Both the position numbers and the translations under genes were made by a program. Below the pieces are notes generated by a model. It was given only the letters and a program-made list of their open reading frames with translations. It was not told the DNA's origin and made no database searches. DNA of 18,505 bases from a virus, in UHGV virus genome UHGV-0309262; one strand, written 5' to 3'. Positions 56-18,367 of the stretch are shown in pieces; position 1 is the stretch's first letter; each line of letters begins with the position of its first letter.

Positions 56-140
56 GCCGAAGTGGCGAAATCGGTAGACGCAGTTGATTCAAAATCAACC
101 GTAGAAATACGTGCCGGTTCGAGTCCGGCCTTCGGCACCA
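56..140 (+). tRNA. leuX: tRNA-Leu (anticodon CAA), 85 nt, ending in CCA
   Basis: Sequence GCCGAAGTGGCGAAATCGGTAGACGCAGTTGATTCAAAATCAACCGTAGAAATACGTGCCGGTTCGAGTCCGGCCTTCGGCACCA has cloverleaf features: anticodon stem GTTGA/TCAAC with loop TTCAAAA (anticodon CAA), a long variable arm, T-arm GGTTCGAGTCC and encoded CCA. Recognised from memory as E. coli leuX. Confidence 0.9.
110..140. repeat. attL core: 31-bp tRNA 3' end, repeated at 14568..14598
   Basis: CGTGCCGGTTCGAGTCCGGCCTTCGGCACCA occurs identically at 110..140 and 14568..14598. Flanking sequence diverges immediately outside the repeat. Confidence 0.8.
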
Positions 141-1276
141 AGTCACTAAATTCCTTACAATACAGCTAGTTAGACAATAAAATCTGTCTCTTTTGCCTGT
201 AAGAAATGCTCTGTTATGTCCCTTGAAAAAGCCGCTGTGGTTGATAGTGGTAATTGGGATGTTAACTCATAGCGGCGTGTAGTTCCAAGCGTCAAACACG
301 TACTGACTCAACTTGAAAGCTATGACGTAGCCACCGTCTCTAAACAATCCCAAAAACTTTTAGTGAAGCGCATTTTAGCCCGATGCCCCCGTTCTGTCGC
401 CGTCGCGAGACGCCGCAGGGGATAAACAGGTTATGGTGGTCACGGTACTTGCAGACCATATGCAAGCTCTGCCAGCGGTTCGGCCTCGCTCCCCTTGGGT
501 ACATGGTCATCCTGATAAGCCTTACTAACTGACATAACCTTGATGAAGTCGCCAGAGGCTCCGCTTGTTGTCTTACCACCAACGGGGCTAATGGTTGGTA
601 TTGCCAGATTACTTAGCAGAGGGGCATAAAGGCACTTCGGAGATCCCGTCCCAAGCGGCTCTCAGGGACTTGTGCGCATGAAGTAATGCGGTTGTACTGG
701 GTATGTGCGCACAACCTTCTACAAGCCGCATTCTACCGTTAGTCAGTAGCTGGCTCCCCGGCTTGAAAAATTGCACGCTTATGGTTGCCCCTCCCTCAAC
801 TCTATAGCTCGCCCGCGCCCCCGTGCACATGTGCGTGCCCGCGCGTCAGGGGTCGCTGAGAAAACCCTAAGATTTTGCTCATCCGAGGCAACCGTTGCAG
901 GCGCGAAATGCTGGACGATTGCTGCTGCCGAATGTGGGTGCGGGCGATTGATTTTCACTGTGTATCTGTACATCCCTCTAAAACGATCTGTGCCGCGTTC
1001 TACGGCGTCCTGTGCTTTCGGTGTGTGATTTAACGTCTGAGTGATTTCGTGATCGTGGCGGTGCCGTGGTGATCTGCTACGTGCGCCGTGGGGCTTTGCT
1101 GCTGTGGTGCGGTGCCAGTCTGTCGCGGCTGCGCCTGTCTCATTCGGGTATACCGCATTGTGATGTGCCGCCGCTGTCGCAATCAAATTTATTTTATACC
1201 CTATTGACCACGGTTTTTAAGTGTGATCTCCTTCATGTCGGGATGTGATACTTCACTGAGATTTGGAGGGGGAATC

Positions 1277-1906
1277 ATGAATAACGTTCGTCTGTATGCC
1301 CGGGCATCCACCGCCGAGCAACACGCCGACCGTGCCGTTCCTGCGCTGGAGGATTTCGCTAATGAGCGTGGTTGGTCTATTGCTGCGCGATACATCGAGA
1401 ACGCCAGCGGTGCGCGGCTGGAGCGTCCTGAACTGATGCGCCTGCTGGGTGAGGCGGAGGCTGGCGACGTTCTACTTGTTGAAAGCATAGACAGGCTAAG
1501 CCGCCTGACACAAAAGGAATGGGCAACACTGAAACAGAGGATTCAGGATAAGGGGCTGGTGATCGTCGCCGTTGACCTGCCAACCTCGTGGCAGTTGCTG
1601 AACGAAACCGCGTCAGAGCTAACCAGCGGCATCCTCAGAGCCGTTAACGCAATGCTGATCGATATTCTCGCTACAATGGCTCGCGTGGACTACGAGACGC
1701 GACTGATGCGCCAGCGGCAGGGCATCGCACGAGCCAAAGCTGAGGGGCTTTACCGTGGGAGCCAGAAGGATGTTGCTGCCCGCGAGACTGTCCGGGAAAT
1801 GCTGGGGCAGGGTGTGAAACCTGAGCGCATCATGAAAGCTGCCGGGATAAGCCGTGCAACGTTCTATCGCATCAAGCGAGAGCTGGCCGCCAGCGTTACG
1901 GAGTGA
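1277..1906 (+). CDS. Serine recombinase (resolvase/invertase family), 209 aa
   Basis: N-terminal VRLYARASTAEQ matches the catalytic-serine motif (Y-x-R-x-S-T-x-x-Q) of small serine recombinases. C-terminal ISRATFYRIKRE resembles a helix-turn-helix. SD GGAGGGGG at 1265..1272 precedes ATG 1277. The ORF track's upstream start at 1223 is in frame but less likely. Confidence 0.75.
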   Translation: MNNVRLYARASTAEQHADRAVPALEDFANERGWSIAARYIENASGARLERPELMRLLGEAEAGDVLLVESIDRLSRLTQKEWATLKQRIQDKGLVIVAVDLPTSWQLLNETASELTSGILRAVNAMLIDILATMARVDYETRLMRQRQGIARAKAEGLYRGSQKDVAARETVREMLGQGVKPERIMKAAGISRATFYRIKRELAASVTE

Positions 1907-2894
1907 TGGCCTACAAGCGAATAAGGTGCTATGACTGGCCGTTACTGGGCTGTGGGTGATGGATTACCTACAGCTTTCGTATTAATTTCAGAGCGTTATG
2001 TTATGCACGATGTCGTAATGCTATGATTTATAATGTATTTTCGTATTACTTGCGGCTCTCGATGTGAAGAGATGGCGGGGCTTTAGCCGTGCCAGACGAT
2101 GAACATCGAGATCAGATTGTGAATGTGATTTATCACTGAAACAATTCCCGGTTGGGGGCGGGGAAGGATTCAACGCTAATTGGTTATGTCGTGGTGCTGG
2201 GTTACATGCTGTTTCTATAGGCTTTTAATGATTTCAGCGTACACGTGTACACTTAACCAATTATCTATGGAGGTTCTTATCTGGTGTCATCTCCTAGATG
2301 GCAAGTGCTGCGCCTCAGTGACGCCGCTTTGCCCTAACGCGGAGACGTTCCGCCGTCTCCACACCTCTCGACGGTGCTGCGCTTCTCGCGTCCGCTAGTC
2401 CGCTTTCATTCGCCTTCGGCTCATTCATCGGCCTGCGTCCGCTGCTGATGCTCGGCCCTCCACGCAACCGTGCTTGCCGGGCAGTCAACGCGGCGGGGAT
2501 GTGTAGTGGAACGGTACTCTGTATCGGTATTACTTCTGTATTCCATCTTATCCTGATATCGGTACGGTATTCTTCATAACATCTTCAATTCATTTCTGTA
2601 GCATTCAATCATCTTCCTTGTTCGTTTCCTTCCAGATCTTAGCCGTTGGTCATTGGTCTTACTGCCAGCTATGGCACACCGTCACGGTCTACTGCTGTAC
2701 TATCTGTTACCTGTTACTACTGCCTTCACTGGTTTCCGGTTGTCAGTCCTACGGTCTGCCATCCGTCATCCGTTCGGCGCTCGCTTGTTTCGGCTGCGCC
2801 GCGCTCGCTCTGCGTATCTAGCGATACTATATCACTATAGACACTTTCATAATTATCTATTGATATCAGTAACTTATATTTTTAATTTTAAAGG

Positions 2895-3146
2895 CTACTA
2901 ATAAGGAGATATAGAGCATTACTTTCCCGCTTTTGACCGACAAAAAATCGAGTTGTTAAGTATTGCCAGCCCAGGCCCAGTAAGGCTTAGCGAGGTGGTG
3001 ATTAAAAATTGACCTAATAAAAGTATCTACTAAGGAGAAAGAATAACTCCCGAAGTGAGACAAACTCTCCGATTTTGAAAGTGACTATTAAGGCAGATAA
3101 AGACACTGACACTGTTGCCGACATGAAAACCTCTATAAGGGCAGAG
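2895..3146. repeat. Array of 4 degenerate direct repeats (consensus about CTAnTAAGGnAG) upstream of the helicase gene; possible iterons or operator sites
   Basis: CTACTAATAAGGAG (2895..2908), TCTACTAAGGAG (3027..3038), GACTATTAAGGCAG (3083..3096) and CTCTATAAGGGCAGAG (3131..3146). None is followed by an ORF, so they are unlikely to be ribosome-binding sites. Confidence 0.4.
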
Positions 3147-3215
3147 AGTCTGCCGCACCTGTACCACCGCCCCAACCTGAGCTAATACCTACCCCTATTT
3201 TCTGGAGATTTCACC

Positions 3216-5060
3216 ATGCCAACAAACCTACGCCGCCTGCTTGCGCAGGCTGCTGACGCCGAACCGCTGAACACTGCGATTGCCGAAGCTCAGCAATTGG
3301 TTGCGGAGAAGATCGTTATACCTCATTCCAAGTTATGCCCTGTCAAACAGCGACCTGTGAAGGCTGCGTTTAACACGGAGTCCGGGCAGTATTTCTACAA
3401 TGCAGATGGTTCCGTTATGTCGTTCCGTGAATGGAAAGAGGCGAACGGAATCGGACGCAAGACACACGCCCGCCGCGCTGATGCTGGGCTACGTCAGATT
3501 ATCCAGCCCGGCGACGCAATTCATTGTCAACGCGCTGAGATTGATCAATGGCTCAACAAGAAGCCTGCCCGGTACGCCGAACCGCTGCCGCCAGATTTTC
3601 CCGGCGTTCGCGTTGACGATGCCGCTCTGAAACCACGTGAGCACGCCATCCCGGAAGCGACCACGGGGCAAAACGCCTTTCTTAAAGCCTGTCGCGAGTT
3701 TCTGATTTGTGATGAGAAGACCATCCGCCGCATCAATCGTGGCATGAGCAAGCTGGAGGCGATGCGCCACGCTGACTTTGACACCCTCGGGGATAGCCCG
3801 GAGTTTCACCAGCTATGGGGCAGTGAGCTGAAATCCACTAAGGACAATTTCAACACGAAGAACCAACACTGTGACGTTGGCGGCGCTGACCTGCCGCCGT
3901 CCATCCCGCCTCTGGTTACAGCGCCGTACAGGTTCCGTGAGCTGGAGCAATGCGACCGCCCGGCATTCGTACCGTTACCGCCGCCAGATGGTCATGACTG
4001 GCGACCCGGTCAACTCGACGTGGCCGCCGCTGTGTTTGCCCGTGACCGCGATATGTTGGCCGTACTGCCGACCGGGTACGGAAAGACGGCTGCATTCACC
4101 TATGCCCTGCATTTTGAGTCTGATGCTGGCGAAGGTATGACCGTTATTGTCGTGCCGACGAACACTATCAAGCAGCAGGTGCTAGAGCAGTTAAGGGAGG
4201 CTGGCGTTCACGCTGTGGCATTTGGCGATAAACTACCGAAGCGGCGTAATGCGCAGCAACTTGCGGGGTTGGCTGCTGGTGCTTTCCGCGTCGCAGTCGT
4301 TTCGCCTGAACATCTGGTGCCGGGTAGTCAGGTGCTTGCCGCGCTGATGGCCGCTGGTGCGGACAGATTTATCATTGACGAGGTGCACACCGTTGATGAA
4401 TGGGAGTTCCGGGACGCTTTCCCTGCAATGAAGCACACCCTGCAAAATGCCTTCCCGGATGCTCAGCGGTGCGCGTTTACTGCGACCCTGCGAAAAGGTG
4501 ATGAGTCTGGCTTGATGAAAGAGCTTGGCTGTCGTGGCGAGTTCCTCACCTACCGCGCCAGTGCTGCCCGTGAAAACATCCAGCTTATTCCTGCTCAGCA
4601 ATGCGTAACTCCGCGCCGGGCTGCCGTTGGTCTGGTCAATGCGCTGCCGGAGAATGAAAAGACATTGGTGATGGTGGACAGCATAAAGATGCTGTATGCG
4701 TATCTCAACGAACTGGGAGACCGTGCCCGGCCTTATCATTCTGACGTTGAGCGACTGAGCCGCGATCAGCGGCACGCCAACGCAGAGTGGTTCTCCAGCA
4801 CGCCCGGCGCTGTTCTGGTGGCGACCAAAGCCTTTGGCCTCGGAGCCGATATTTCTGACGTGCGTAACGTAATTGTCACTTATGTTCCGGAAGACCTGCC
4901 CGATTTGGTGCAAATGGTTGGCCGTGCCGGGCGCGATGGTCAACCTGCCCGTGCTTTCATACTCTGGTCATCGTTGGCGCTGGGGGATGCGCCTGATGAT
5001 TTGGCGGCGTTGTACCAGCCCCACAATGCTAACTGGGGTTACATCTCCCGCTTCCTCTGA
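3216..5060 (+). CDS. RecQ-like SF2 DNA helicase with an ~270 aa N-terminal domain of unknown function (614 aa); probable replication or recombination protein of the element
   Basis: Helicase motifs read from the translation: motif I LPTGYGKT, motif II IIDEVH, motif III FTAT, and motif V/VI VATKAFGLGADISDVRNVI...QMVGRAGRDG, which closely resembles the RecQ signature QExGRAGRDG. SD GGAGA 7 nt upstream of ATG 3216. Confidence 0.8.
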   Translation: MPTNLRRLLAQAADAEPLNTAIAEAQQLVAEKIVIPHSKLCPVKQRPVKAAFNTESGQYFYNADGSVMSFREWKEANGIGRKTHARRADAGLRQIIQPGDAIHCQRAEIDQWLNKKPARYAEPLPPDFPGVRVDDAALKPREHAIPEATTGQNAFLKACREFLICDEKTIRRINRGMSKLEAMRHADFDTLGDSPEFHQLWGSELKSTKDNFNTKNQHCDVGGADLPPSIPPLVTAPYRFRELEQCDRPAFVPLPPPDGHDWRPGQLDVAAAVFARDRDMLAVLPTGYGKTAAFTYALHFESDAGEGMTVIVVPTNTIKQQVLEQLREAGVHAVAFGDKLPKRRNAQQLAGLAAGAFRVAVVSPEHLVPGSQVLAALMAAGADRFIIDEVHTVDEWEFRDAFPAMKHTLQNAFPDAQRCAFTATLRKGDESGLMKELGCRGEFLTYRASAARENIQLIPAQQCVTPRRAAVGLVNALPENEKTLVMVDSIKMLYAYLNELGDRARPYHSDVERLSRDQRHANAEWFSSTPGAVLVATKAFGLGADISDVRNVIVTYVPEDLPDLVQMVGRAGRDGQPARAFILWSSLALGDAPDDLAALYQPHNANWGYISRFL

Positions 5061-5103
5061 GCTAACTGGCTCGCCTGTTTAATTTCCTCTCTGGAGAATC
5101 CAC

Positions 5104-5535
5104 ATGCCTGATGAAACCGTGCGGCAACGCGCGGGGCGTTCTGACGCCCTGATTAATGCGCAGCTCGCTTACGCCCTGAACGGGTATTCATTTGATGGGT
5201 TGGCCGAACGTCATCGCAAGACCCTTAACCGGGAGGCCATCCTTCGCGAGGTGTCCACGCCGCTGGAGCGATATTGCCTTTTGAATGATTGCGAACCGTG
5301 GGAGTGTCTGGCCGCTGTGCTGAACCGCATGAAAAGGCCGGATGGCTCACGTTGCTGGAAAGCTGTCCGCCTGTCTGAGCGGGTTTTTAATGGTCGAGTG
5401 CATCCAGTGCGCAAGACACCTGATGAAGTTTACGCCGCCATTGCCCGCCGTTTATTTCTGCCGAAGCCCGTGCATCAAGAAGTGATACAGCACATCCGGG
5501 CGCTTGGCCTGTTACCAGTTGGAGATAACCATTAA
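5104..5535 (+). CDS. Hypothetical protein (143 aa), first gene of a coupled operon
   Basis: ORF with SD GGAGAA 6 nt upstream of the ATG. Its stop overlaps the next start (TAATG). No recognisable motif. Confidence 0.55.
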   Translation: MPDETVRQRAGRSDALINAQLAYALNGYSFDGLAERHRKTLNREAILREVSTPLERYCLLNDCEPWECLAAVLNRMKRPDGSRCWKAVRLSERVFNGRVHPVRKTPDEVYAAIARRLFLPKPVHQEVIQHIRALGLLPVGDNH

Positions 5536-5744
5536 TGACCAAAACCGAGTTTGAAGCTGGGACATGGGATATGCGGTGCCTGTTGCTGGAGGCGCTGACC
5601 CGCCGCCTGAAAGAGGACTCCGCTGGAGAATCCCGCATGGCTGCTGCCGAGCTGTCATCCTGCGTGAACTTCCTCAAGCAAAATGCCGCCGATGCGCCGG
5701 ACGCATCTTTCAATAACGTGTTCCCGGAGGATGACAACGAATGA
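5535..5744 (+). CDS. Hypothetical protein (69 aa), acidic C-terminus
   Basis: Start overlaps the preceding stop (TAATG) and the stop overlaps the next start (ATGA), indicating translational coupling. Confidence 0.45.
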   Translation: MTKTEFEAGTWDMRCLLLEALTRRLKEDSAGESRMAAAELSSCVNFLKQNAADAPDASFNNVFPEDDNE

Positions 5745-5932
5745 CGCCGCACCAGTTTAGAGCGTGGTTTAACTCGCTGCCTGAGAAGTACCAGAAGCAG
5801 GCCAAAGCCATGTACGACAACGCCCGGCGCGGCGGTGGTATCCATACCGCATCCAGCCTCGCTTTGATTAAAGACCTTGTAGAAGATTCGATTAACTTTG
5901 ATGGAGAGTTCCAGTATGACAACCACCAGTAA
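5741..5932 (+). CDS. Hypothetical protein (63 aa)
   Basis: ATGA overlap with the upstream gene; in-operon position and consistent coding composition. Confidence 0.45.
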   Translation: MTPHQFRAWFNSLPEKYQKQAKAMYDNARRGGGIHTASSLALIKDLVEDSINFDGEFQYDNHQ

Positions 5933-6494
5933 CGCAACCCTGACCCTGCGCGATATTCAGCTTATCAATAAACTGAGTATTGTTGACCACCTGAACAACG
6001 ATGAAATCTCTTCTCGCACTGGTTTCAGCCCGAGCGACATCGACCGTGTAATCCGTGGCGTCTATGTCGATGACTTGGCCGAACAGTGGAAAGACGATGC
6101 TGATATTACTCTGGCTGAATACAACGCCATCCGCAGCCGCTATAAGCCCGGCAAGCTGCACCGTGATACGGAATTTATGATTGCCCGCGATACGCTGATT
6201 CGCCCTGAAACCGTGCTGGCTATCGCTCATTCCAGATTCCAGAACGCCCACACTCACCCTGCGCCGAAAGCCGTTAAAGTGAAGCCGGAGAAAGCGAAAG
6301 CCATGCGCAAGCTGGTGCCTTCTGATTTGGATGAAATCCACAAGTTAGAGCGCTTTGGCTGGCCTGTCGCTGACATCGCCCAAAAGCTGGACGTTCCGCC
6401 AGAGGTGATCGCTTTCGTTAACCGCTGCTTAAAGAGCCGCTGGCCGTATGGTGACATTCTGGAAAATGTTAATGCGAAATGGGGAGCCGAGTGA
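5916..6494 (+). CDS. Hypothetical protein (~192 aa)
   Basis: ATG at 5916 is preceded by GGAGAG at 5902..5907. The ORF track's earlier TTG start at 5898 lacks an SD. Stop overlaps the next start (TGATG). Confidence 0.5.
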   Translation: MTTTSNATLTLRDIQLINKLSIVDHLNNDEISSRTGFSPSDIDRVIRGVYVDDLAEQWKDDADITLAEYNAIRSRYKPGKLHRDTEFMIARDTLIRPETVLAIAHSRFQNAHTHPAPKAVKVKPEKAKAMRKLVPSDLDEIHKLERFGWPVADIAQKLDVPPEVIAFVNRCLKSRWPYGDILENVNAKWGAE

Positions 6495-6724
6495 TGGAAG
6501 ATAACGACATCATTCACCCTGCAATTGACCCGACTCAATACGTCAACCTTGACGAGATGCGGGAAGGCTACGCCCCTGTTAAGCCGCAGGGGTGGGACAT
6601 CCTGACGCAGAATCTCCGAAGTGAGGCCGCACCCGAACAGCCAGTCACCGCCCGTGGACGCCGCCAGCGTCCGCGTGGCTCCGCTGGCGAGCGCCGTTGG
6701 CTACGCCGTCACGGGCTTATTTAA
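6494..6724 (+). CDS. Hypothetical protein (76 aa), Arg-rich C-terminus
   Basis: ATG 6494 overlaps the upstream stop; GGGGAG SD at 6481..6486. Confidence 0.45.
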   Translation: MEDNDIIHPAIDPTQYVNLDEMREGYAPVKPQGWDILTQNLRSEAAPEQPVTARGRRQRPRGSAGERRWLRRHGLI

Positions 6725-6738
6725 CTGAGGATTATTTC

Positions 6739-6978
6739 ATGAGCACCATCATTTTAATGGAGCCACGCCGCGCGGCTGATTGCGGGCAACAACTGAAATT
6801 CATTGCTGACGCCTTGAATCTTCGTCAAATCGACTTGGCTCGTGTGTACCAGATCGACAGACAAGATCTCGGCAAAGCGTACCACGGACAGAAGATGATT
6901 CCTGCCCGATGCGTACATGCGCACATGCTTTTACTTGAACTGGCGCACCGCCGAGTTACATCACAAGAGGTTGCATAA
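6739..6978 (+). CDS. Hypothetical small protein (79 aa)
   Basis: ATG 6739 is preceded by GAGG at 6727..6730. The track ORF starting at 6697 overlaps the previous gene and is less likely. Confidence 0.4.
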   Translation: MSTIILMEPRRAADCGQQLKFIADALNLRQIDLARVYQIDRQDLGKAYHGQKMIPARCVHAHMLLLELAHRRVTSQEVA

Positions 6979-6980
6979 TT

Positions 6981-7676
6981 ATGGCTGACAATCAAAACCC
7001 TTATCTCGCTGCTGGCGCTGATGCTGCATCGCAGCAATCGCCATACATGGCTGCACCTGTTGGAGCTGACAATGGGGCATCCCGCTTTAGCTCTGCGCCT
7101 GCTGATGCTGATTTCCTCCGTACCCAACCCGTTAACGGTAATGATGGCGGCCAATGGAATAATAGCAATATTGCTAATCAGCAAGACCAGAACGCGGACA
7201 GCGCCGGGGCGCAGGTGGGCGATACTATTCCCCTGATGGATGGAACAGCTATTGAGTACACCGCCGAGCTGCAAGGATTGATGGGGCAGTTTCACCAGTC
7301 TATAGAAAGCCAGCTCGGGCACGGAACAGTTGACGCTATGTTGCAGTACGCGGGCACGCTTGACGCCGGGACGCAATCCACCCTTGAACGTATGGTTATG
7401 TCTGGCGACCCTGCGCAGATGCAGCGGGCTGTTCAGTACCTGCAAGAGAGGATGGCCGCAGGCACTGCGACTGGTTATGTCCCGTCGCAGGGGAACACAT
7501 ATGGTCAGCCCGCCGCGCAACCTGTCGGAATGTCACACGCTGAATTCATCGCGGCGTACGATGCGCTGAATCAATGGGCTGCACAGACTGGCCGGGGTGC
7601 TGGCACGCGAGAATACGACCAGCAGTATCATGCGCTGGTTGCTCAACGCAGCGCCGGGAAGCGTGCCGGGCGCTAA
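6981..7676 (+). CDS. Hypothetical protein with a low-complexity Ala/Gln/Gly/Asn-rich N-terminal half (231 aa)
   Basis: Long ORF with no internal stops, in-operon position. The composition suggests a disordered region; no enzymatic motif recognised. Confidence 0.5.
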   Translation: MADNQNPYLAAGADAASQQSPYMAAPVGADNGASRFSSAPADADFLRTQPVNGNDGGQWNNSNIANQQDQNADSAGAQVGDTIPLMDGTAIEYTAELQGLMGQFHQSIESQLGHGTVDAMLQYAGTLDAGTQSTLERMVMSGDPAQMQRAVQYLQERMAAGTATGYVPSQGNTYGQPAAQPVGMSHAEFIAAYDALNQWAAQTGRGAGTREYDQQYHALVAQRSAGKRAGR

Positions 7677-7690
7677 CTGGAGAATTCCAT

Positions 7691-7954
7691 ATGTACGATG
7701 AGAATAGAATCCGAGTCCTGACCGAGGTAGAGAAACAATCTCACTCGGTCGATAGCATTCTTTCCATTCTGCTTGATAAATACCCCAGCACCAGCCCCGA
7801 CCATCTGACGCGTGTCGCTGAATGCCTCGTTACTTTTGGCTGGGGTGTTGCTGAATACGATGCGTACCGCGCCGGGATGCTTGGCGAAGAGAAGCGCCAG
7901 ACGATGGTCGCTTGGTTTACTGAGCGGAATTCCGCGCAACGCTGGGCTGCCTGA
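7691..7954 (+). CDS. Hypothetical protein (87 aa)
   Basis: ATG 7691 with GGAG SD 8 nt upstream, just after the upstream stop at 7674..7676. The ORF track's 7574 start lies inside the preceding gene. Confidence 0.45.
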   Translation: MYDENRIRVLTEVEKQSHSVDSILSILLDKYPSTSPDHLTRVAECLVTFGWGVAEYDAYRAGMLGEEKRQTMVAWFTERNSAQRWAA

Positions 7955-8224
7955 TTCCGATGCCAGCGCCTGACGGTGCATTGTGGGCTGCAAGTCCGAC
8001 TGGACACCTGACCCTGCGAATTAACTACTTACTGTCCACTAATCGCTGAGAGCCGCGCCAATTCTGGCCTAGCAAAGCCAGTTTCGGGTACTCGGAGACT
8101 TTTCTATCAATCTGCTTTAACCCTGATTTTCCATCTCTCTGAATCCTGCCACGGCGGGAGGATTACGCACGCCTGCACCATGACGATGGCGCGGGCTTCA
8201 TCAACCTACGTAGGAGTTTTGTTT

Positions 8225-9220
8225 ATGGCTGATACTTCGTACAGTCCCGATCTGTTTCGCCCACATTATGGCGGGGTGGAATCCGACAATGATATTCACA
8301 TCGAGGCTTATGACCGGGATGTCCAGACCCGTTTAGAGTCCAAATCCGTATTTCTGGCCGAGGGGCTGTCTACATACAGGCCGCTGAAAGGCAGCAACCA
8401 ATACCGCATTGATCGCCTGAGTGGTGATCTTGAGGTGAAGGGCAGAACCGCAGGGCAATCGCTGGAGCCTACCGCCGTTAAGTCGGACAAGCTGATCATC
8501 TCTGTGGATACTCTGAGCTATATCCGCATCCCGATTGATTATCAAGATGACTGGACTGCACCCACCTTTCGCGCCGAGCTGAGCCGCAACATGGGGACAG
8601 CCCATGCGAAGTTTTACGACGAAGCGCACACCATCCAGTTAATCAAAGCGACTGACTTTGTACCGCCGCCGACACTGCAACCAACGTTTAACCCGCTTAC
8701 GGGCAATGTTGTCTCGCTCGACCTGACAGCGGGGAGCGAAGAGGACGCCGCAAAAGAGCTGGTTCACGCTATCAAAGCTGCTGTTGATCGGTTCCTGACT
8801 GAGAAAGATATTCCGGTGGTGGAGTTGTGTCTTCTCATCGACCCGGCTTGGTTCAGCATCCTGATGGAACACAAGAAGCTGATGAACGTCCGTTATAGCC
8901 GGGATAGTGGCAACGATTACGCGTGGCGGCGCATCGGTTACGTGGCCGGGGTGCGAGTCATTGAGCTGAACAGTTACCCGCAGGAAGCCATTACCGGGCA
9001 TGAGCTGGGCGCTGATTATGACGTTACCGCAGAGGAAGCGCTGACGAGGGCGACGCTGTTTAAACCCTCCTCGGTACTGTTGACGGTCGAAGCACAGAGC
9101 GTCATCAATCGCCAGTGGGATGATGAACGCGAAATGACGGTGGTGATGGACTCATATCGCCTGTTCAACGTTGGGCTGCGTCGTCCTGATTGCGTTATCA
9201 ATTTCCGACAATCTGCGTAA
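8225..9220 (+). CDS. Hypothetical protein (331 aa); possibly structural, but this is a weak guess
   Basis: ATG 8225 preceded by AGGAG at 8210..8214, following a 270-bp intergenic gap. Size and position after a low-complexity protein loosely resemble a scaffold/capsid arrangement, but no motif confirms it. Confidence 0.5.
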   Translation: MADTSYSPDLFRPHYGGVESDNDIHIEAYDRDVQTRLESKSVFLAEGLSTYRPLKGSNQYRIDRLSGDLEVKGRTAGQSLEPTAVKSDKLIISVDTLSYIRIPIDYQDDWTAPTFRAELSRNMGTAHAKFYDEAHTIQLIKATDFVPPPTLQPTFNPLTGNVVSLDLTAGSEEDAAKELVHAIKAAVDRFLTEKDIPVVELCLLIDPAWFSILMEHKKLMNVRYSRDSGNDYAWRRIGYVAGVRVIELNSYPQEAITGHELGADYDVTAEEALTRATLFKPSSVLLTVEAQSVINRQWDDEREMTVVMDSYRLFNVGLRRPDCVINFRQSA

Positions 9221-9236
9221 CTGGAGGGGCTGGGTC

Positions 9237-9746
9237 ATGGTTAATGATACTTACGCCCCTGAGCTGTTGCGATCCCTTTTCCTGTACGACCCGGTGACAG
9301 GTCGCCTGCACCATAAAGCTAACCGACGCCGGGTTAAGGCTGGCTCCTGTGCTGACTCCACCCGTCGAGCTGATGGCTATCGTCAAGTTGCCCTGCGACT
9401 GGATGGCAAGCAGTACCAGCTAAAAGCCCACCGCGTGGCGTGGATTCTTGCGCATGGCGCTATTCCTGATGGTCTGCAAGTTGACCACATCAACGGTATC
9501 CGTGACGACAACCGCCTATGCAATCTGCGCTTGGTTACGCAGCGGGAAAACGACCAGAACCGACGCAGGGCAAAGGGTTGTAGCTGGAATAAGGGCTGTA
9601 GCAAATGGGAGGCTTACATTCGCGTTAATGGTGTACGCCATCACCTTGGCTTATTCACTAGCGAAGCGGCGGCGCGTGCTGCTTACCTGAAAGCAAAAGC
9701 CAGATACCATCCCTCGACCCCAGTCGATTTGTTAAATGCTGCTTAA
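9237..9746 (+). CDS. HNH endonuclease with AP2-like DNA-binding domain (169 aa)
   Basis: AHRVAWILAHGAIPDGLQVDHINGIRDDNRLCNLRLVTQRENDQNR matches the phage-type HNH_3 signature (H...DH.NG...DNR..NL......N). WEAYIRVNGVRHHLGLFTSEAAARAAY matches an AP2 domain. SD GGAGGGG 6 nt upstream. Confidence 0.7.
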   Translation: MVNDTYAPELLRSLFLYDPVTGRLHHKANRRRVKAGSCADSTRRADGYRQVALRLDGKQYQLKAHRVAWILAHGAIPDGLQVDHINGIRDDNRLCNLRLVTQRENDQNRRRAKGCSWNKGCSKWEAYIRVNGVRHHLGLFTSEAAARAAYLKAKARYHPSTPVDLLNAA

Positions 9747-9764
9747 ACTTTGGAGACGTAGTTT

Positions 9765-10199
9765 ATGGGGACTAAAAAGCAGGGTAGAGCAATCCGAGTG
9801 CTGCCAGATGATGACCCACGTCGCCAGCGGTACGCCGAACTGTTGGCGCAGGCTGGCCGGATGACTGTCCCCCGGTTGCATCCGGGAGACGCTAACAGCG
9901 TAATGAGCCAGCTCGCGACGATGCTTGGCGCACCAGTCCCGATAGTCGGCACTATGACGGAGCACGCCGCCGCATGGCGGACCTGCCTGCTGGAGCAAGG
10001 ACTTGGCGATCTGCTGGCTGGCTTGAGTAAGCAGGTACTGACCGTCTTCTTTCTGCTTTGCTGGAGAGACAGCGCCTTGCGGCAGGTTGGCAAGGAGCGG
10101 GAACGGCTTACGGCGGCCAGCGAAGGCTTGACCATTGAACAGTATCGGGCAATGCGCTCGGCTTACAGAGAGAATAAAGAAGATGATGACCACGATTAA
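9765..10199 (+). CDS. Hypothetical protein (144 aa)
   Basis: ORF with GGAGACG SD upstream of ATG 9765; in-operon position. Confidence 0.45.
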   Translation: MGTKKQGRAIRVLPDDDPRRQRYAELLAQAGRMTVPRLHPGDANSVMSQLATMLGAPVPIVGTMTEHAAAWRTCLLEQGLGDLLAGLSKQVLTVFFLLCWRDSALRQVGKERERLTAASEGLTIEQYRAMRSAYRENKEDDDHD

Positions 10200-10482
10200 A
10201 TTAAGGTGGCGGTACATCGATCCGCCGCCAATGGCTGGCGCACTCGCTGACCTGAAAGTGTGGGTAATGGATACCGGAGAGCCTGAGCTGGAAGCTGAAT
10301 TTCGTAAGCTGCTGGGGTTAATGCGCCGCAACGGTATCAGTGACGAACGCGTTAATGCGATGGCTGATGAGCTTTATGTTCTGGTACGGCAACGGCAGCG
10401 CGAAGAATACGAAGCCTGCAAGCGGGCTGCATCTGACAATGGAGACTTTGAATCATGGTTACACGGACAGACCAGCTACTAA
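10183..10482 (+). CDS. Hypothetical protein (~99 aa)
   Basis: ATG 10183 overlaps the end of the upstream gene. The 5' part of the track ORF (from 10135) overlaps that gene and is rejected. Confidence 0.4.
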   Translation: MMTTIKLRWRYIDPPPMAGALADLKVWVMDTGEPELEAEFRKLLGLMRRNGISDERVNAMADELYVLVRQRQREEYEACKRAASDNGDFESWLHGQTSY

Positions 10483-10883
10483 GAAAAGCTATGCGGGGCT
10501 ATCTGGAACACCTCGGCAACATGCCGTTGGCGGAACGGATTACAAACACTGCTGCATTCGAAGATGTGTATCGCTTCCTGTTGAATGGTTCCGGGCGTCT
10601 GGAGCTGCGTCGTGCTGATGTGGCCGCTGTCCGTTTCTTCTTGTGGAATTATCAATACCGCCGCTGTGCGGTGACAGGTAAGCCGCTGCGCCTTACGTCT
10701 GCCGTATTAGATCACTGCCACCGAACCGGGCGCGTGCGTGCTGTGGTGCATCGCTCTGCTAACGCTGCTGAGGGTGGCTACCATGCTGGGCGTTTGTGTG
10801 GGCTGTCGCCTAGCAGCATGAACGCGATGCTGGCGAGCTACCGCCAACAAAACCAAGGGCTGGGCGTTGTTTATCCGGGGTGA
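10455..10883 (+). CDS. Endonuclease VII-like (Holliday-junction/branched-DNA nuclease family) protein (142 aa)
   Basis: C-terminal CAVTGKPL...LDHCHRTGRVRAVVHRSANAAEG matches the Endonuclease_7 pattern (C..C...DH.H.TG.VR.....N...G). GGAGA SD upstream of ATG 10455. Confidence 0.6.
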   Translation: MVTRTDQLLRKAMRGYLEHLGNMPLAERITNTAAFEDVYRFLLNGSGRLELRRADVAAVRFFLWNYQYRRCAVTGKPLRLTSAVLDHCHRTGRVRAVVHRSANAAEGGYHAGRLCGLSPSSMNAMLASYRQQNQGLGVVYPG

Positions 10884-10895
10884 TGAGTTCTCGCT

Positions 10896-10917
10896 GCGCC
10901 GGGTTTGCACCCGGCAC
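10896..10917. terminator. Putative bidirectional hairpin between convergent transcription units
   Basis: GCCGGGT-TTGC-ACCCGGC stem-loop in the 55-bp gap between the plus-strand operon (ends 10883) and the minus-strand R gene (ends 10939). Weak U-tract. Confidence 0.3.
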
Positions 10918-10938
10918 AAAAGATGTTTAGCCCACTAG

Positions 10939-12015
10939 TCAGTGGGTTACGCAGTTTTCCATAAACGCATTAAGGAATTGATCTGTAATTCCTTGTGGTT
11001 TGCGTCGTTCACAAAGAGAATACAATTCTTCGACTGCTGAGTACGGGAAGAATTTTGTGTCCAGCTCTCGGAATTGCGGCATATTCGCAAACTCAATGAC
11101 TTTAGCACGATATTCATCGGGGGCTACGATTGTCCATCTGATATCTTGAAGCCGTGGGGCATAGTCACAAAAATTCTTCATCCGGGTTAACCCGCTTTTA
11201 ATCCCAGTGCTGTGCTCAATTTCCATCACGGCGGGCATTAATTTTCCATTTCTAAACCAAATGCAATCTATTAGTTTTGCACCGTCAATGGCCTCGCTGT
11301 ACGAGCTTAATACCTTTTCATTTGAGAGGCTATCAATTACCCCATCCATTTGAGCAATGACTTTTCCGTTATATTTAAGTCCGCGATCATTAGCTGCCAC
11401 CCATGTTCTGTAGCCTAAGTGGTGGCCGATTTTTACTAATGCAATCTGGATTTGTGCATGTCTTCTTGATTCTTCAATCGACATGCCCTCAACTGGGCGG
11501 ATCGTTTCCAGATCAACGCTTTGATATACAACCTCTGTTTTCATCTCTGATATTACAATATTAGCTTTGTATTCAGAGAGCTTACCGTTTTCGTGTGGCG
11601 AATTGGGTAAGTACACAAGATGCTTGTGGCCTTTCTTTACCGTCTGTTTAGTGTTAATAACTTCTAAACGGTCGAGTTTACACCAATAAAATTGCGGTGT
11701 GTGTGCAAGTAAACTCTCAATAACGGAACGGGAGTTATAGCTTGCACCAAGCACTCTATCTAAATTGATAGGTGCATCCTCTTGAATTGCATTAGCCAAA
11801 CGCCAAAGCATCTGGCTAGAGATGCTGTCTATTTTTGCATCTTTAAGCGTCTCGCCTTTGGTCGGATTAAAACGCTTAAAGCGTATCGGGCCTTGTGGTG
11901 ACTTAATCGAGTCGACGACAATCTTCCCAGCATTACTTTCATTCACATAATCAAACTGCCTGTTTTTGGGCAGGTTGGCTATCGCATTCACAAGATTCAT
12001 TGCTGTCAAATTCAT
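10939..12015 (-). CDS. Putative type II restriction endonuclease (358 aa), cognate to the adjacent methyltransferase
   Basis: Immediately downstream of, and overlapping by 65 nt, a C5-cytosine methyltransferase gene on the same strand. Similar low GC. AGGGA SD upstream of ATG 12015. The function is inferred from position only; no catalytic motif recognised. Confidence 0.5.
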   Translation of the reverse strand: MNLTAMNLVNAIANLPKNRQFDYVNESNAGKIVVDSIKSPQGPIRFKRFNPTKGETLKDAKIDSISSQMLWRLANAIQEDAPINLDRVLGASYNSRSVIESLLAHTPQFYWCKLDRLEVINTKQTVKKGHKHLVYLPNSPHENGKLSEYKANIVISEMKTEVVYQSVDLETIRPVEGMSIEESRRHAQIQIALVKIGHHLGYRTWVAANDRGLKYNGKVIAQMDGVIDSLSNEKVLSSYSEAIDGAKLIDCIWFRNGKLMPAVMEIEHSTGIKSGLTRMKNFCDYAPRLQDIRWTIVAPDEYRAKVIEFANMPQFRELDTKFFPYSAVEELYSLCERRKPQGITDQFLNAFMENCVTH

Positions 12016-13090
12016 CTTTTATCCCTAAATGCTCTAATATAGATTTTGCTATTCCGAAGGCTGCAAGGTAAGGAACACCATTACCAACAGTTTTGAACAT
12101 ATTTGAAAGAGTCATATAAGATGGCAATTCAAACTCTTTCGGCAAAGACTGAATGGCAAGCGCTTCTGCAACTGTTATTCTGCGTGGCTTATATGGATGT
12201 AAATGAACCTCGTTATTACCATAAGCAGCAGTCGGCGAATATCTCCAGCGGTGGAGGCGCTTGTAAGATTTTTTACTATCGTCACCTTCTGCAACAGCCT
12301 TGAAGCGTACTAATCCAGCTCTGGCCGTAAATACATGCTTCGCGTTCACATGTTCAGAAACATTATTTTTCTTAAACCAGTAATCAACAGTTAATTCTTG
12401 TGGGAGTGACTCTGGCATTGCAAGTGTAGAGTCCTCGGAAAATTCATTTGTTGTTGGCCAACTGTAACTAAAGGCATTACGATCCGGGTATAATCTGCCA
12501 CTCCAATTAAATGACTTGGCTAGTCTCTTACTTTGGAAACCCAATAGAATAATGCGCTCTCGGTCTTGCGGAGCACCGTATTCAATCGAATTAATCAACC
12601 TTTCATGAAGAGTGTAACCCACATCCATCAACTGCTCTTTGAGATGCTCAAAAAACTCGCGATGCTTGAGTGTGCGATATAACCCCTTGACGTTCTCGAA
12701 CAAGAAGAAGTCAGGTTTCATCTCTACAATTATATCAATGTAGCTTTGGGACAGCTTACCATTCTCCCCATCGCGCCCTTTGTTTTTGCCCGCAACGGAG
12801 AAGTCGGGGCAAGGTGGGCCACCAATGAAGCCAATCAGTCTTTTTTCTTTCTTGAGTGTTTTAATAGCGTCTTTCAACTGCTTGTGATCAACTTCCTCTA
12901 TGCTCTTTTCGGCATAGCCAAAACGAGGGATAGGCTTGTTCATTACCGCACGCGAGTGCTTGTAAGCATCCATAAACGGCGGGTGAAATTCATTCACAAA
13001 AACCACTTCGTAGCCTGAGTTTTCAAAGCCAAGGTCTAAAAAGCCTGAGCCGGAAAAGAAAGAGAAGATGGCGGGTTTAAGTGTGGACAT
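11951..13090 (-). CDS. DNA (cytosine-5)-methyltransferase (379 aa)
   Basis: C5-MTase motifs in the expected order: motif I FSGSGF (F-x-G-x-G), motif IV GGPPCP (the catalytic Pro-Cys), motif VI ENV (FLFENVKGL), motif VIII QDRER, motif X GNGVP near the C-terminus. Confidence 0.8.
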   Translation of the reverse strand: MSTLKPAIFSFFSGSGFLDLGFENSGYEVVFVNEFHPPFMDAYKHSRAVMNKPIPRFGYAEKSIEEVDHKQLKDAIKTLKKEKRLIGFIGGPPCPDFSVAGKNKGRDGENGKLSQSYIDIIVEMKPDFFLFENVKGLYRTLKHREFFEHLKEQLMDVGYTLHERLINSIEYGAPQDRERIILLGFQSKRLAKSFNWSGRLYPDRNAFSYSWPTTNEFSEDSTLAMPESLPQELTVDYWFKKNNVSEHVNAKHVFTARAGLVRFKAVAEGDDSKKSYKRLHRWRYSPTAAYGNNEVHLHPYKPRRITVAEALAIQSLPKEFELPSYMTLSNMFKTVGNGVPYLAAFGIAKSILEHLGIKDEFDSNESCECDSQPAQKQAV

Positions 13091-13225
13091 TTTTTACCTA
13101 TTGCTGATCATTAAGACATGCGAAAACGCCCCTGCATCTTAACAGATGAGGGGGTCATTGCAACGGATTGCGGGGAGCTGTAGCGATGAGCTGGCTCAGA
13201 TGAACGATTCAAACATCCATTAAAT

Positions 13226-14434
13226 TTAAAGGGCTATTTGATGGTTCACAAACTCCACGTAGCGTGATAGTTCGGCTGGGGCTGCTGCGTTTTTCGAATA
13301 TGTTTTGAAGCTCTCCGTGTTACCTCGCTCATGGCCGACGAGCAGGGCAATGCGATCCTCTGGCACTTGAGCACGGTCGAGCTGTTGCACAAACGCATGG
13401 CGGAGTGAATGAAACACTTTTCTCTCTGCGGCAGGCTCGCCAAGAGCTTTACGCTTTGCTCGCGTGAATTGTTGCGTATGCCACGTTGAGCGCTTCCCAT
13501 CGGCCCGGTCTGTAATAGATGCGTGATAGAACAGAAAACCGCTATGTGTGGTTTTGAGCAATGATTTCATGAGGGGGATTAACTTGCTGTGTACAGGGAC
13601 AATTCGCGCTGCGCTCTTAGTTTTCCCCTCGGTGATCTCAAAGCACAATATCCCCTCGATAGTTTTAATGCTGCTTTCACGTAGCGTACATATCTCATTG
13701 ATCCGCATACCGCTGTATGCACCAATAGCCGTTACCGCCTTCATCTCATCATCAAGCAAAGCATAGACCTTTGCCAGCTCACCCGGTGCGAAGACTTCAT
13801 AGCTGACCTTGCTGCTTTTTGCTTCGAGCGCATGACCGCGCCAAGGATTGTCTTGTGGCGCATCGTGATAGCGATTGCGTGCCAGATCCCATATCTGCGC
13901 CAGTGCGCTTATATAGTTTTGAATAGTTTGGGGCGCTCGCTCAGTTTTGAGCTTATCTAACCAGCCTGTAACTATGGTTCGGTTAATATCCCGCAACTGA
14001 ACATCTTTCTTTTTCAGGTGGGTTAACAGCACCTCTACGGCTTTGTTGGTCTTAGATAGCGTTGTTAGCTTTCTCTTCTCGCTGTATTGGAGAAGATACA
14101 GATCGCGCATTTTAAGTAGGGAGGGGCAAGCCTGAACCGATGCACCAAATGATGCGGGGGCTTCCTTGGCATATACACTGACACGGCGTAGCTCATCAAT
14201 GATTTGATCGACGGATGAGCCGCCTTGCGGTTTTAGCAGATTCCGTAAGCGAGTCCATTCCAGAGCAATAGCATCGCGAAACAAACGCGCTTGCCGTATG
14301 TCGCGTGTCCCTGTGCTTTTCATAAAGTAGCGCTTCCCTTGGAACAGGTGACGCATATAGCTGGGGATAGCTATCCGCACGAGGTAATTACCGCAGGGAT
14401 CTAAAACTAGATAACGATCTCTCTTGAAACTCAT
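13226..14434 (-). CDS. Tyrosine recombinase / phage-type integrase of the inserted element (402 aa)
   Basis: C-terminal catalytic signature: R in YSGMRINEI, HSLRHAF (H-x-x-R box), LLVGH, and the nucleophile Y in TESFKTYSKN. Lies next to the right direct repeat. Confidence 0.8.
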   Translation of the reverse strand: MSFKRDRYLVLDPCGNYLVRIAIPSYMRHLFQGKRYFMKSTGTRDIRQARLFRDAIALEWTRLRNLLKPQGGSSVDQIIDELRRVSVYAKEAPASFGASVQACPSLLKMRDLYLLQYSEKRKLTTLSKTNKAVEVLLTHLKKKDVQLRDINRTIVTGWLDKLKTERAPQTIQNYISALAQIWDLARNRYHDAPQDNPWRGHALEAKSSKVSYEVFAPGELAKVYALLDDEMKAVTAIGAYSGMRINEICTLRESSIKTIEGILCFEITEGKTKSAARIVPVHSKLIPLMKSLLKTTHSGFLFYHASITDRADGKRSTWHTQQFTRAKRKALGEPAAERKVFHSLRHAFVQQLDRAQVPEDRIALLVGHERGNTESFKTYSKNAAAPAELSRYVEFVNHQIAL

Positions 14435-14567
14435 ACAAACCCCGGTTATGTTGTCGGGGCTTTTTCATGGCTAAACAGTCTGTGAAATGTGCCGGGGTTA
14501 TGAGCTTTAGTCTCGCTGGTTCAATGATTTAACAATGATTCTTGAAGCAAGCTAAGCCGCCTAAACC

Positions 14568-14598
14568 CGTGCCGGTTCGAGTCCGGCCTTCGGCACCA
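14568..14598. repeat. attR core: displaced original 3' end of leuX
   Basis: Identical 31-bp copy of tRNA positions 110..140, located ~165 bp upstream of the P4-like integrase where an intact leuX would normally sit. Confidence 0.8.
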
Positions 14599-14710
14599 TT
14601 AGTACTTCCAAGACCATCCGAGAAAGTCCAATTATTCCTTAAAAATCAATGATTTAAGCGATTTTTACGTCCTGAGTCGTCCGAGGTTGTCCGTTGAAAT
14701 CCGGATGTCA

Positions 14711-14764
14711 TTGGGGGCATAATTGGGGGCATCTTAACTTCGATTAGAAATGTGCCCCCAAATG
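14711..14764. promoter_or_regulatory. Direct and inverted repeats of a TTGGGGGC motif upstream of and overlapping the intB start; putative integrase operator or arm-type site
   Basis: TTGGGGGCAT (14711..14720) and TTGGGGGCAT (14723..14732) are direct repeats. Their reverse complement GCCCCCAA sits at 14753..14760, overlapping the start codon. Confidence 0.3.
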
Positions 14765-16027
14765 AAGCTCAACGCCAGACAGGTCGAGACCGCAAAGCCA
14801 AAAGACAAAACCTATAAAATGGCCGATGGCGGCGGTTTGTATCTCGAGGTTTCGGCCAAGGGTTCTAAATACTGGCGCATGAAATACAGACGCCCCTCAG
14901 ACAAAAAAGAGGATCGCCTCGCTTTTGGTGTTTGGCCTACTGTGACGCTTGCTCAGGCAAGAGCAAAGCGCGACGAAGCTAAAAAGCTGTTAGTGCAGGG
15001 CATTGACCCAAAAGCCGAACTGAAAGAAGCTCAGGCCGAGAATTCGGGGGCATATACTTTCGAAACCATTGGCCGTGAATGGCATGCCAGTAACAAGCGC
15101 TGGAGTGAAGACCATCGATCACGCGTTCTTCGCTATCTTGAGCTTTATATCTTCCCTCATATCGGTTCGTCCGACATTCGCCAGCTCAAAACTAGCCACC
15201 TGTTAGCCCCGATTAAAAAAGTTGATGCCAGTGGAAAGCATGACGTCGCTCAGCGCTTGCAACAGCGCGTTACGGCCATTATGCGTTATGCCGTACAGAA
15301 CGATTACATCGACTCAAATCCAGCCAGTGATATGGCCGGTGCGCTATCGACAACCAAAGCGCGGCACTATCCTGCTTTGCCCTCTAGCCGCTTCCCAGAG
15401 TTTCTTGCTCGTCTTGCTGCATATCGTGGCCGTGTAATGACACGGATCGCGGTCGAGCTTTCCTTACTCACTTTTGTACGTTCCAGTGAGTTACGTTTCG
15501 CGCGTTGGGATGAATTCGACTTCGATAAATCTCTTTGGCGTATACCGGCAAAACGAGAAGAAATTAAAGGCGTGCGTTACTCGTATCGTGGCATGAAAAT
15601 GAAAGAGGAGCATATTGTTCCTCTCAGTCGGCAGGCGATGGTTTTATTAGAGCAGCTCAAGCAAATTAGTGGTGATAAAGAGCTGCTGTTCCCGGGAGAT
15701 CATGACGCAACTAAGGTTATGAGTGAAAACACGGTAAACAGTGCATTGCGTGCAATGGGATATGACACGAAAACTGAGGTCTGTGGGCATGGGTTCAGAA
15801 CGATGGCGCGTGGTGCTATGGGTGAGTCAGGGTTGTGGAGTGATGACGCGATAGAGCGACAGCTGAGCCATTCAGAACGTAATAACGTGCGTGCAGCTTA
15901 TATTCATACTTCTGAGCATTTGGATGAGCGACGTTTAATGATTCAGTGGTGGGCTGATTATCTTGATGAGTTAAATAATAATTACATTACTCCATTTGAT
16001 TTCGCTAAAATACAAAAAAATTATTAA
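14762..16027 (+). CDS. intB: P4-family tyrosine integrase (421 aa)
   Basis: N-terminus MKLNARQVETAKPKDKTYKMADGGGLYLEV is the hallmark P4-like integrase arm-binding signature (AKPK..Y...DGGGLYL). Typical position just downstream of the leuX 3' end. The in-frame ATG at 14750 is an alternative start. Confidence 0.85.
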   Translation: MKLNARQVETAKPKDKTYKMADGGGLYLEVSAKGSKYWRMKYRRPSDKKEDRLAFGVWPTVTLAQARAKRDEAKKLLVQGIDPKAELKEAQAENSGAYTFETIGREWHASNKRWSEDHRSRVLRYLELYIFPHIGSSDIRQLKTSHLLAPIKKVDASGKHDVAQRLQQRVTAIMRYAVQNDYIDSNPASDMAGALSTTKARHYPALPSSRFPEFLARLAAYRGRVMTRIAVELSLLTFVRSSELRFARWDEFDFDKSLWRIPAKREEIKGVRYSYRGMKMKEEHIVPLSRQAMVLLEQLKQISGDKELLFPGDHDATKVMSENTVNSALRAMGYDTKTEVCGHGFRTMARGAMGESGLWSDDAIERQLSHSERNNVRAAYIHTSEHLDERRLMIQWWADYLDELNNNYITPFDFAKIQKNY

Positions 16028-18345: not shown

Positions 18346-18367
18346 TTGTTTCAAATAATCATCACCG

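Follow-up and report, generated by a model that had tools for sequence, protein, structure and literature searches.

The stretch of DNA considered here, called the window throughout, is the UHGV virus genome UHGV-0309262, 18,505 nucleotides of one strand read from 5' to 3', and the main subject is a pyrimidine-rich, non-coding tract within it, which belongs to what looks, on sequence comparison, like an integrated satellite of virulent T7-like phages of the genus Bonnellvirus. An earlier note, made from the letters alone, had singled out positions 2390-2830 as dominated by C and T on the plus strand, and had suggested that they might mark a structured non-coding RNA, a transfer-origin or single-strand-origin nick site (oriT or sso), or a regulatory region. 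The features at and around this tract are as follows, with the evidence for each in brackets.

1223..1906, plus strand: serine recombinase of the resolvase/invertase type (Pfam Resolvase 6e-25, HTH_7; PHROG DNA invertase)
1907..3215: non-coding control region of 1.3 kb, without a conserved open reading frame
2046..2122, plus strand: conserved hairpin, upstream of and outside the tract (helices 2053-2065/2103-2115 and 2073-2081/2086-2094)
2274..2889, plus strand: pyrimidine-rich, A-poor tract, enclosing 2390-2830 (maximal-segment scan, sliding windows)
2376..2535: family-conserved C-rich module (BLAST, alignment of 16 copies)
2695..2878: helper-like block, the right end of the tract (megablast; alignment of 14 copies; position in phages)
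2777..2827: 51-nt core of the block (alignment; sequence read directly)
2830..2852, minus strand: 23-nt copy of a putative Bonnellvirus RNA-polymerase promoter, TTATGAAAGTGTCTATAGTGATA (motif matches; 23-mer in phage glasur; covariation with phage J8-65)
2853..2885: stretch rich in A+T, lying upstream of the leftward promoter (composition; alignment)
2889..3147, plus strand: four repeats AAAG..CTAnTAAGG(N)AGA, at about 2889-2909, 3018-3038, 3076-3097 and 3123-3147 (repeat search; motif match at 3076-3092)
3216..5060, plus strand: SF2 helicase of the RecQ family, its N-terminal region of 260 aa being unique (Pfam DEAD/Helicase_C; RecQ matches in PDB and NCBIfam)

Over 2390-2830 the purine content is 36.7% (A 14.5, C 30.2, G 22.2, T 33.1%), and the figures that the earlier note had counted for 2581-2640 are borne out at 26.7% purine and 8.3% G. 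At scales of 60, 100, 200 and 440 bp alike this tract has the lowest purine content of the whole window (at 440 bp, 0.359 against a window mean of 0.491 with a standard deviation of 0.038). When the purine skew was mapped, as that note had advised, a maximal-segment scan placed the boundaries at 2274-2889 on the plus strand (616 bp, 37.2% purine), which is the strongest pyrimidine-excess segment in the window; its score of 42.3 lies beyond the range seen in 500 block shuffles (15.7 ± 3.0, maximum 30.8). The next three pyrimidine-excess segments all fall within minus-strand genes; of the top segments, 2274-2889 alone is non-coding. The gene-free interval of about 1.3 kb in which the note had placed the tract was confirmed (1907-3215, 1309 bp), and three overlapping plus-frame open reading frames that it had taken to be spurious (2618-2821, 2646-2840 and 2653-2901) are indeed present and indeed spurious, being judged non-coding because 1-nt indels separate the homologues. 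Conservation across copies of the element could also be checked: the asymmetry recurs in 16/16 other copies examined, and the minimum purine content per 300 bp is 0.31-0.41 across all 17 island copies examined. The contention that this is not ordinary intergenic DNA thus stands, the tract being conserved, functional-looking, strand-asymmetric and non-coding.

A second strongly skewed stretch was seen in 141-1222, with an A minimum of 9% at about 984-1183; this probably reflects a minus-strand open reading frame at 779-1186, which has no family match.

The relationship that gives the tract its context is with Bonnellvirus, a genus of virulent Autographiviridae whose genomes of 42 kb have their genes in a phiKMV-like order. 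In a megablast comparison, 2695-2878 is the sole nucleotide-level match of the 18.5-kb window to Bonnellvirus phages, at 85-95% identity, and the homology stops sharply at 2878. A link of a different kind comes from the capsid protein of the island, which is 57% identical to the Bonnellvirus capsid; the top phage matches for it by tblastn (56-57% identity) are Bonnellvirus-type genomes, and in a tblastn search with all open reading frames it is the sole protein held in common with phage glasur. The capsid and the non-coding block constitute two independent links to one phage genus.

Terminal-repeat positions in these phages were mapped by alignment to J8-65, which has an annotated direct terminal repeat of 259 bp and is the only Bonnellvirus record in which both repeat copies were found. 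In the phages the block is likewise non-coding, and lies between the endolysin gene (the last gene) and the sigma-70 early promoters; it is situated in the left-end unique region, where it starts some 130 bp rightward of the terminal repeat, spanning about 130-300 bp inside the repeat, which it thus adjoins. All five Bonnellvirus junctions (L002 2878-2895, L007 270-290, glasur, Kc261 and altidsur) carry, about 13 nt past the right repeat boundary mapped from J8-65, the word ATCT(G/A)TC followed by a run of T; in position and form this is the pause signal of the T7 concatemer junction, ATCTGTT. The window itself has an ATCTGTT at 2702-2708 that was considered as a T7-like pause site, and was rejected as it is not conserved among the islands. 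When 1900-3220 was compared with the phage junctions by sensitive BLAST, nothing was found past the block of some 175 bp, and no counterpart of the repeat.

The composition of the tract is also found in the phages. The homologous region in five of them has a minimum purine content per 300 bp of 0.35-0.37, and in glasur the purine content is at its lowest in the whole genome at the block (0.335, the mean being 0.519 and the standard deviation 0.040), the region next to it, which is the terminal repeat, being the adenine minimum at 2-5% A. Judged by these comparisons, the asymmetry to which the earlier note drew attention is a property common to the left end of the phage and its island copy. It may be added that the phage terminal-repeat region (L005 42055-42400; L007 1-259) has 2-7% A, is G/T-rich and contains many GCTGGTG-like words resembling Chi.

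Alignment of 14 copies of the block in all (eight from islands and five from phages, together with that of the window) reveals a variable C/T-rich left part, then the 51-nt core, then TATCACTATAG, and then A+T-rich DNA. The core is identical in 8/8 satellite copies and 4/5 phage copies, barring a 4-nt spacer variant in L093 and L098; TATCACTATAG and the core are constant across the 14 copies (spacer variant aside) between variable flanks. Within the core there are two 9-nt direct repeats, GCGCTCGCT, at 2777-2785 and 2801-2809, with a period of 24 nt, and also an inverted repeat GTATC-N4-GATAC. A search for tandem repeats found none, and short dispersed repeats were weak. Further to the left, the C-rich module at 2376-2535 keeps 80-97% identity even where both of its flanks have been replaced; it is placed where the phage has its terminal repeat, to which it bears no similarity.

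Two haplotypes of the block can be distinguished, the identity between them being only 80-89%. In the first, the window, L003, L096 and L098 resemble phages LF82-23 and altidsur at 92-96%; in the second, the blocks in enteropathogenic Escherichia coli (EPEC) E2348/69 and in the most frequent E. coli copy (L094, L095) are close to that of glasur, at about 95%, and those of L097, L099 and L014 match it at 91-92%. Strain 22AR0118 is of the window type, and WP8-S17-ESBL-12 has a block of the glasur type. Since L095 and L096 have near-identical flanking modules and different block types, there has therefore been recurrent exchange with phages that is confined to the block. In the copies from Enterobacter, Trabulsiella and Rosenbergiella the sequence of the block is unrelated, and the same composition is kept, as is the order in which a pyrimidine-rich part is followed by (C)GATAC, a promoter-like motif and A+T-rich DNA; this layout of pyrimidine-rich, promoter-like and A+T-rich parts is thus maintained in three unrelated block types and in two phages.

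The promoter-like motif is a 23-mer, TTATGAAAGTG(A/T)CTATAGTGATA, on the minus strand at 2830-2852; it faces left, toward the tract, and by analogy with the geometry of T7 promoters a transcription start is predicted near 2835. The same 23-mer occurs on the plus strand of glasur, where it directly follows the RNA-polymerase gene and precedes the structural genes, and a variant of it occurs after a hairpin and ahead of the primase gene. Altogether the motif is matched 4 times in glasur, where 0.04 would be expected, and two of these matches stand where a promoter should be; the island has 2 matches where 0.02 would be expected, the second being the rightward one at 3076-3092. Moreover, the left-end copy and the copy following the RNA-polymerase gene covary, both reading GTGACTAT in glasur and both GTAACTGT in J8-65, and in the Rosenbergiella copy of the island the leftward and rightward variants match each other (TATTACAG). 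From position and covariation we infer that the 23-nt motif is a promoter of the phage RNA polymerase. The sequence TATCACTATAG had also been tried as a T7-like promoter on the plus strand, and was rejected in view of the 23-nt identity with the motif after the RNA-polymerase gene on the minus strand.

On the other strand, the four repeats at 2889-3147 lie upstream of the plus-strand operon of which the RecQ-family helicase is the first gene; their positions are conserved in other island copies, and they resemble both the phage promoter motif and a T7-type initiation region. Counts made with regular expressions and degenerate patterns gave no clean significance statistic for these repeats. Not one sigma-70-like promoter was predicted in 1850-3260, where 2.1 would be expected, and the combination of promoter-like repeats with this absence suggests that it is the RNA polymerase of the helper phage that drives the helicase operon. 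In L093 (9587-10024) and L010 (9542-9977) an extra gene of about 145 aa lies between the promoter-like repeats and the helicase; the window lacks it.

The remaining features of the island are the following.

56..140, plus strand: tRNA-Leu(CAA), of which the 3' end at 110-140 is the attL core (ARAGORN, Rfam)
141..14598: integrated satellite-like island (att repeat)
8180..9220, plus strand: major capsid protein homologue (BLASTP 3e-134; PHROG 267)
9171..9746, plus strand: HNH endonuclease, with an annotated homologue of 169 aa (Pfam HNH_3 1e-19; annotation)
10455..10883, plus strand: Endonuclease VII-like protein (Pfam, PHROG)
11951..13090, minus strand: C-5 cytosine DNA methyltransferase of the Dcm type, as cargo (Pfam 5e-53)
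13226..14434, minus strand: tyrosine integrase of the island (Pfam Phage_integrase; annotation)
14568..14598, plus strand: attR core, repeating the 3' end of tRNA-Leu (direct-repeat search)

Several small proteins without an assigned family are encoded as well. As would be expected of a satellite, the island has its own tyrosine integrase and att repeats, and is missing most virion and packaging genes, the capsid homologue being the only one present; searches with Pfam, PHROGs and NCBIfam and by tblastn against glasur found no portal, terminase, tail or scaffold gene. From start to start of the att repeats it measures 14,458 bp, about one third of the 42.2-42.5 kb of Bonnellvirus genomes, and satellites are typically a third as large as their helpers (PMC9618062); the island therefore fits the usual small-capsid rule.

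The same element occupies the same site in 58/5426 complete E. coli genomes (about 1%), including EPEC E2348/69. Relatives of it come from Enterobacter, Trabulsiella and Rosenbergiella, and 13 metagenome contigs also have one, human gut being the label of several; the block itself is present in no fewer than 51 E. coli genomes and in 13 metagenome contigs. All metagenome contigs bearing an exact 37-nt core (13/13) are island copies and none is a phage, and in IMG/VR the same 37-mer is present in one island contig and one phage contig of 42.7 kb, so that the island version seems to be commoner than the phage version in assembled metagenomes.

The most useful points of comparison are with T7 itself. 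This phage packages plasmids that bear a T7 origin, a pac site and a terminal repeat (PMC13236587), and its own genome has the sequences for packaging recognition close to the termini, with RNA polymerase paused at the concatemer junction recruiting gp18/gp19. The island resembles the T7/T3 junction and the T7 phagemids in that non-coding DNA beside a T7-like terminal repeat is concerned, that the phage's own RNA polymerase would be involved, and that such DNA would let a phage replicate and package foreign DNA. It differs from the T7/T3 junction in that, of the phage end, it has the part 130-300 bp inside the repeat and neither the repeat nor the boundary signal; two of the features that define the T7 junction (terminal repeat and pause signal) are thus lacking. 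The promoters near the ends of T7 point rightward, whereas the putative one of the island faces the end, and the island would be a natural element rather than an engineered plasmid.

Established satellites offer partial parallels. With P4 and the cos site of P2, and with SaPIs and PICIs of both cos and pac types, the island shares its integrated state, a size of about one third of the helper and the possession of a near-copy of helper end DNA, here a putative packaging site. P4 and the SaPIs/PICIs copy the packaging DNA of the helper and redirect its capsid assembly. Their helpers, however, are temperate cos or headful phages, whereas here a virulent phage is the putative helper, one that has terminal repeats and encodes an RNA polymerase of its own. 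Moreover, neither a P2-type cos site nor the P4 genes (alpha, sid, psu, delta) nor PICI marker genes were found inside the island, the only P4 match of the window (14575-16027) being the int/attP of a neighbouring element outside it. The cf-PICIs encode a full head module comprising portal, protease, connectors and small terminase; the island is like them in encoding its own major capsid protein, but its capsid gene is the only recognisable part of such a module. On these markers the island is not a member of the P4, PICI or cf-PICI families. In lifestyle, which is the only respect compared, the PLE of Vibrio cholerae offers a further parallel, being a satellite of a strictly lytic phage (ICP1) with a serine recombinase and nucleases, and activated by helper infection; it differs in that it remodels the coat protein of its helper and has no capsid homologue, and in that its helper, a myovirus, has no single-subunit RNA polymerase.

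Taken together, these observations point to an explanation to which an even chance is given, namely that in the tract the island has its own version of the helper's non-coding left-end region, a cis-acting mimic that would cause the helper to package (or replicate) the island. On this explanation, after infection the RNA polymerase of the helper would start at about 2835 and run leftward over the pyrimidine-rich strand as template, producing a purine-rich RNA; the polymerase and the core sequence would together recruit the helper terminase, as at the T7 concatemer junction; and the replicated island DNA would be cut and packaged, probably in small capsids that include the island's own capsid protein. 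The same polymerase, acting at the four repeats at 2889-3147, would switch on the island operon. Packaging is favoured as the function of the block partly because satellites generally copy the packaging site of their helper, and the island has an 85-95% copy of helper DNA from near the genome end, a candidate packaging recognition sequence; partly because it is without a terminase of its own; partly because the core, given the spacing of its direct repeats, resembles a site for protein binding; and partly because of the T7 precedent, in which the packaging sequences are near the termini and the paused polymerase recruits gp18/gp19.

There are, nevertheless, several points that weigh against this explanation. 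No significant similarity to the phage terminal repeat was found in 1900-2700 of the window, and the boundary signal ATCTGTC with its T-run is not conserved in the islands, where it is sporadic and elsewhere placed; with neither repeat nor signal in the island, the cut sites are therefore unexplained. Nor was any virion-derived contig with island termini found, all of the metagenome contigs (13/13) being integrated copies or fragments without terminal overlaps, and a search of IMG/VR for a packaged or excised island gave no match to the helicase and, for the capsid, matches to two island contigs and to phages. For the block types of Enterobacter/Trabulsiella and of Rosenbergiella there is no phage match among GenBank phages or in IMG/VR. 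What marks the motif as a putative promoter is its position and its covariation, and one of the four glasur matches falls at a gene start, as does the corresponding match in J8-65. No recognisable replication initiator (primase, DnaB-like or SF3) was found in the island, and any role assigned to the strand asymmetry itself is a guess.

Of the alternatives, the one that survives best, though it is unlikely, is that block and tract form a helper-dependent replication origin, in which a purine-rich RNA, started at the leftward promoter by the helper RNA polymerase, would stay paired with the pyrimidine-rich template as an R-loop and prime the helper DNA polymerase with the assistance of the RecQ-like helicase, as a counterpart of the promoter-type origins near the ends of T7. 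Secondary origins of T7 are promoters near the genome ends. A putative phage-type promoter does adjoin an A+T-rich stretch here, the strand composition would suit a stable RNA:DNA hybrid, and the absence of an initiator from the island, which has nothing but a RecQ-family helicase next to the region, speaks for this alternative; T7 phagemids, moreover, require a T7 origin (PMC13236587). However, the A+T-rich stretch is upstream of the promoter and what lies downstream is the G+C-rich invariant core, which is not the arrangement of a T7 origin, and about 23 bp would suffice for a promoter-type origin, which has no need of an invariant 51-nt core with direct repeats. A site beside the terminal repeat suits packaging equally well, and the absence from the island of terminal repeat and boundary signal, together with the failure to find a packaged form, counts against an origin just as it counts against a packaging mimic.

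Rather less probable is that the element is a helper-sensing transcription unit and nothing else, making a regulatory or antisense RNA with no role in replication or packaging. There are promoter-like motifs on both strands with no sigma-70 promoter present, and a leftward transcript would be antisense to the recombinase gene at 1223-1906; that gene, or transcripts reading through, could be the target of such an RNA. Against this, the phages retain the leftward motif and the core facing the genome end, where there is no gene to regulate; the transcript has no unusual structure; and both the conservation of the core and the sharing of haplotypes would go unexplained.

It is more improbable again that the block is a neutral recombination scar, acquired from phages or donated to them, with the asymmetry simply inherited from phage sequence. 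The sharp boundary of the homology at 2878 could be so explained, and infections by T7-like phages are highly recombinogenic. A neutral scar is nonetheless hard to reconcile with the presence of the block in so many E. coli genomes and metagenome contigs, with a core conserved over 14 copies, with repeated haplotype exchange limited to the block, or with the retention of composition and layout where the sequence is unrelated.

That the tract encodes a structured non-coding RNA, as the earlier note had put forward, is very improbable. The region is certainly conserved and non-coding, but the covariance-model search advised in that note found no Rfam match in 1900-3220 at gathering score or at E<=1, the folding of the predicted leftward (minus-strand) transcript, taken at 133 nt and 461 nt, is unremarkable (z of -1.3 and -1.2), and RNAalifold on the module at 2376-2535 gave 0 compensatory pairs and an unfavourable covariation term. 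The nearest thing to support is the hairpin at 2046-2122, outside the tract, where covariation is clear: 6 compensatory pairs with 97.5% of cells paired, a result equalled in 0/500 shuffles and compared with 0-3 in slid controls. In the Rosenbergiella hairpin the stem CTCGATGT/ACATCGAG is exchanged for AAGGTGCC/GGCACCTT. An invariant G-U pair favours a plus-strand RNA for this hairpin, which likewise has no Rfam match.

The weakest proposal, again from the earlier note, is that the tract is an oriT or a single-strand-origin nick site of a plasmid-like or conjugative element; it has the strand asymmetry alone on its side and is negligible in probability, given that no fitting relaxase, rolling-circle Rep or conjugation gene was found in the island and that the homology is to a phage end region, although the broader idea behind it, of an origin or processing site, was of the right kind.

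A few observations concern other parts of the island and its neighbourhood. The stretch from attL to the recombinase (141-1222) varies among island copies, others of which have there a minus-strand open reading frame of 304 aa. At 10939-13090, on the minus strand, the Dcm-type methyltransferase overlaps a 358-aa protein without a family match, and the two may be a restriction-modification or defence cargo pair. Directly past attR, 14575-16027 contains a P4-type integrase and attP-like arm repeats, 90% identical to phage P4, which therefore represents a second leuX-targeting element in tandem; beyond it lie a DEAD-box helicase-like open reading frame of 701 aa (16276-18381, minus strand) and then IS1 (18365-18505).

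To return to the mimic of the helper's left end, a fuller picture, to be held only tentatively, would be that the tract is the cis-acting heart of a previously undescribed family of satellites that parasitise Bonnellvirus coliphages. Such an element would be silent until the single-subunit RNA polymerase of a helper appeared, and would then be expressed from phage-type promoters, copied, and packaged by virtue of its left-end mimic, so acting as a natural T7-type phagemid whose mimic is kept up to date by recombination. Most of the satellites known have temperate phages of the cos or headful kind as helpers, PLE with ICP1 being the main case of a virulent helper. In the literature searched, coverage of which was incomplete, no description was found of a satellite of Bonnellvirus, of Autographiviridae or of T7-like phages of enterobacteria, and a satellite of T7-like coliphages is probably new.

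T7-like phages are used in phage therapy and in synthetic biology. If the interpretation is true, some E. coli strains, among them EPEC E2348/69 and urinary and extended-spectrum beta-lactamase (ESBL) isolates, carry an element able to hijack or block infection by Bonnellvirus, and one that is activated directly by the RNA polymerase of the phage. As to how the island could be copied or packaged by a phage, it is the likeness of the block to the phage end that points to an answer, and the region of some 175 bp with its 51-nt core would become a candidate for the packaging or replication signal of the Bonnellvirus group itself. The element would then also be a clear example of a helper and its parasite swapping a non-coding recognition site.

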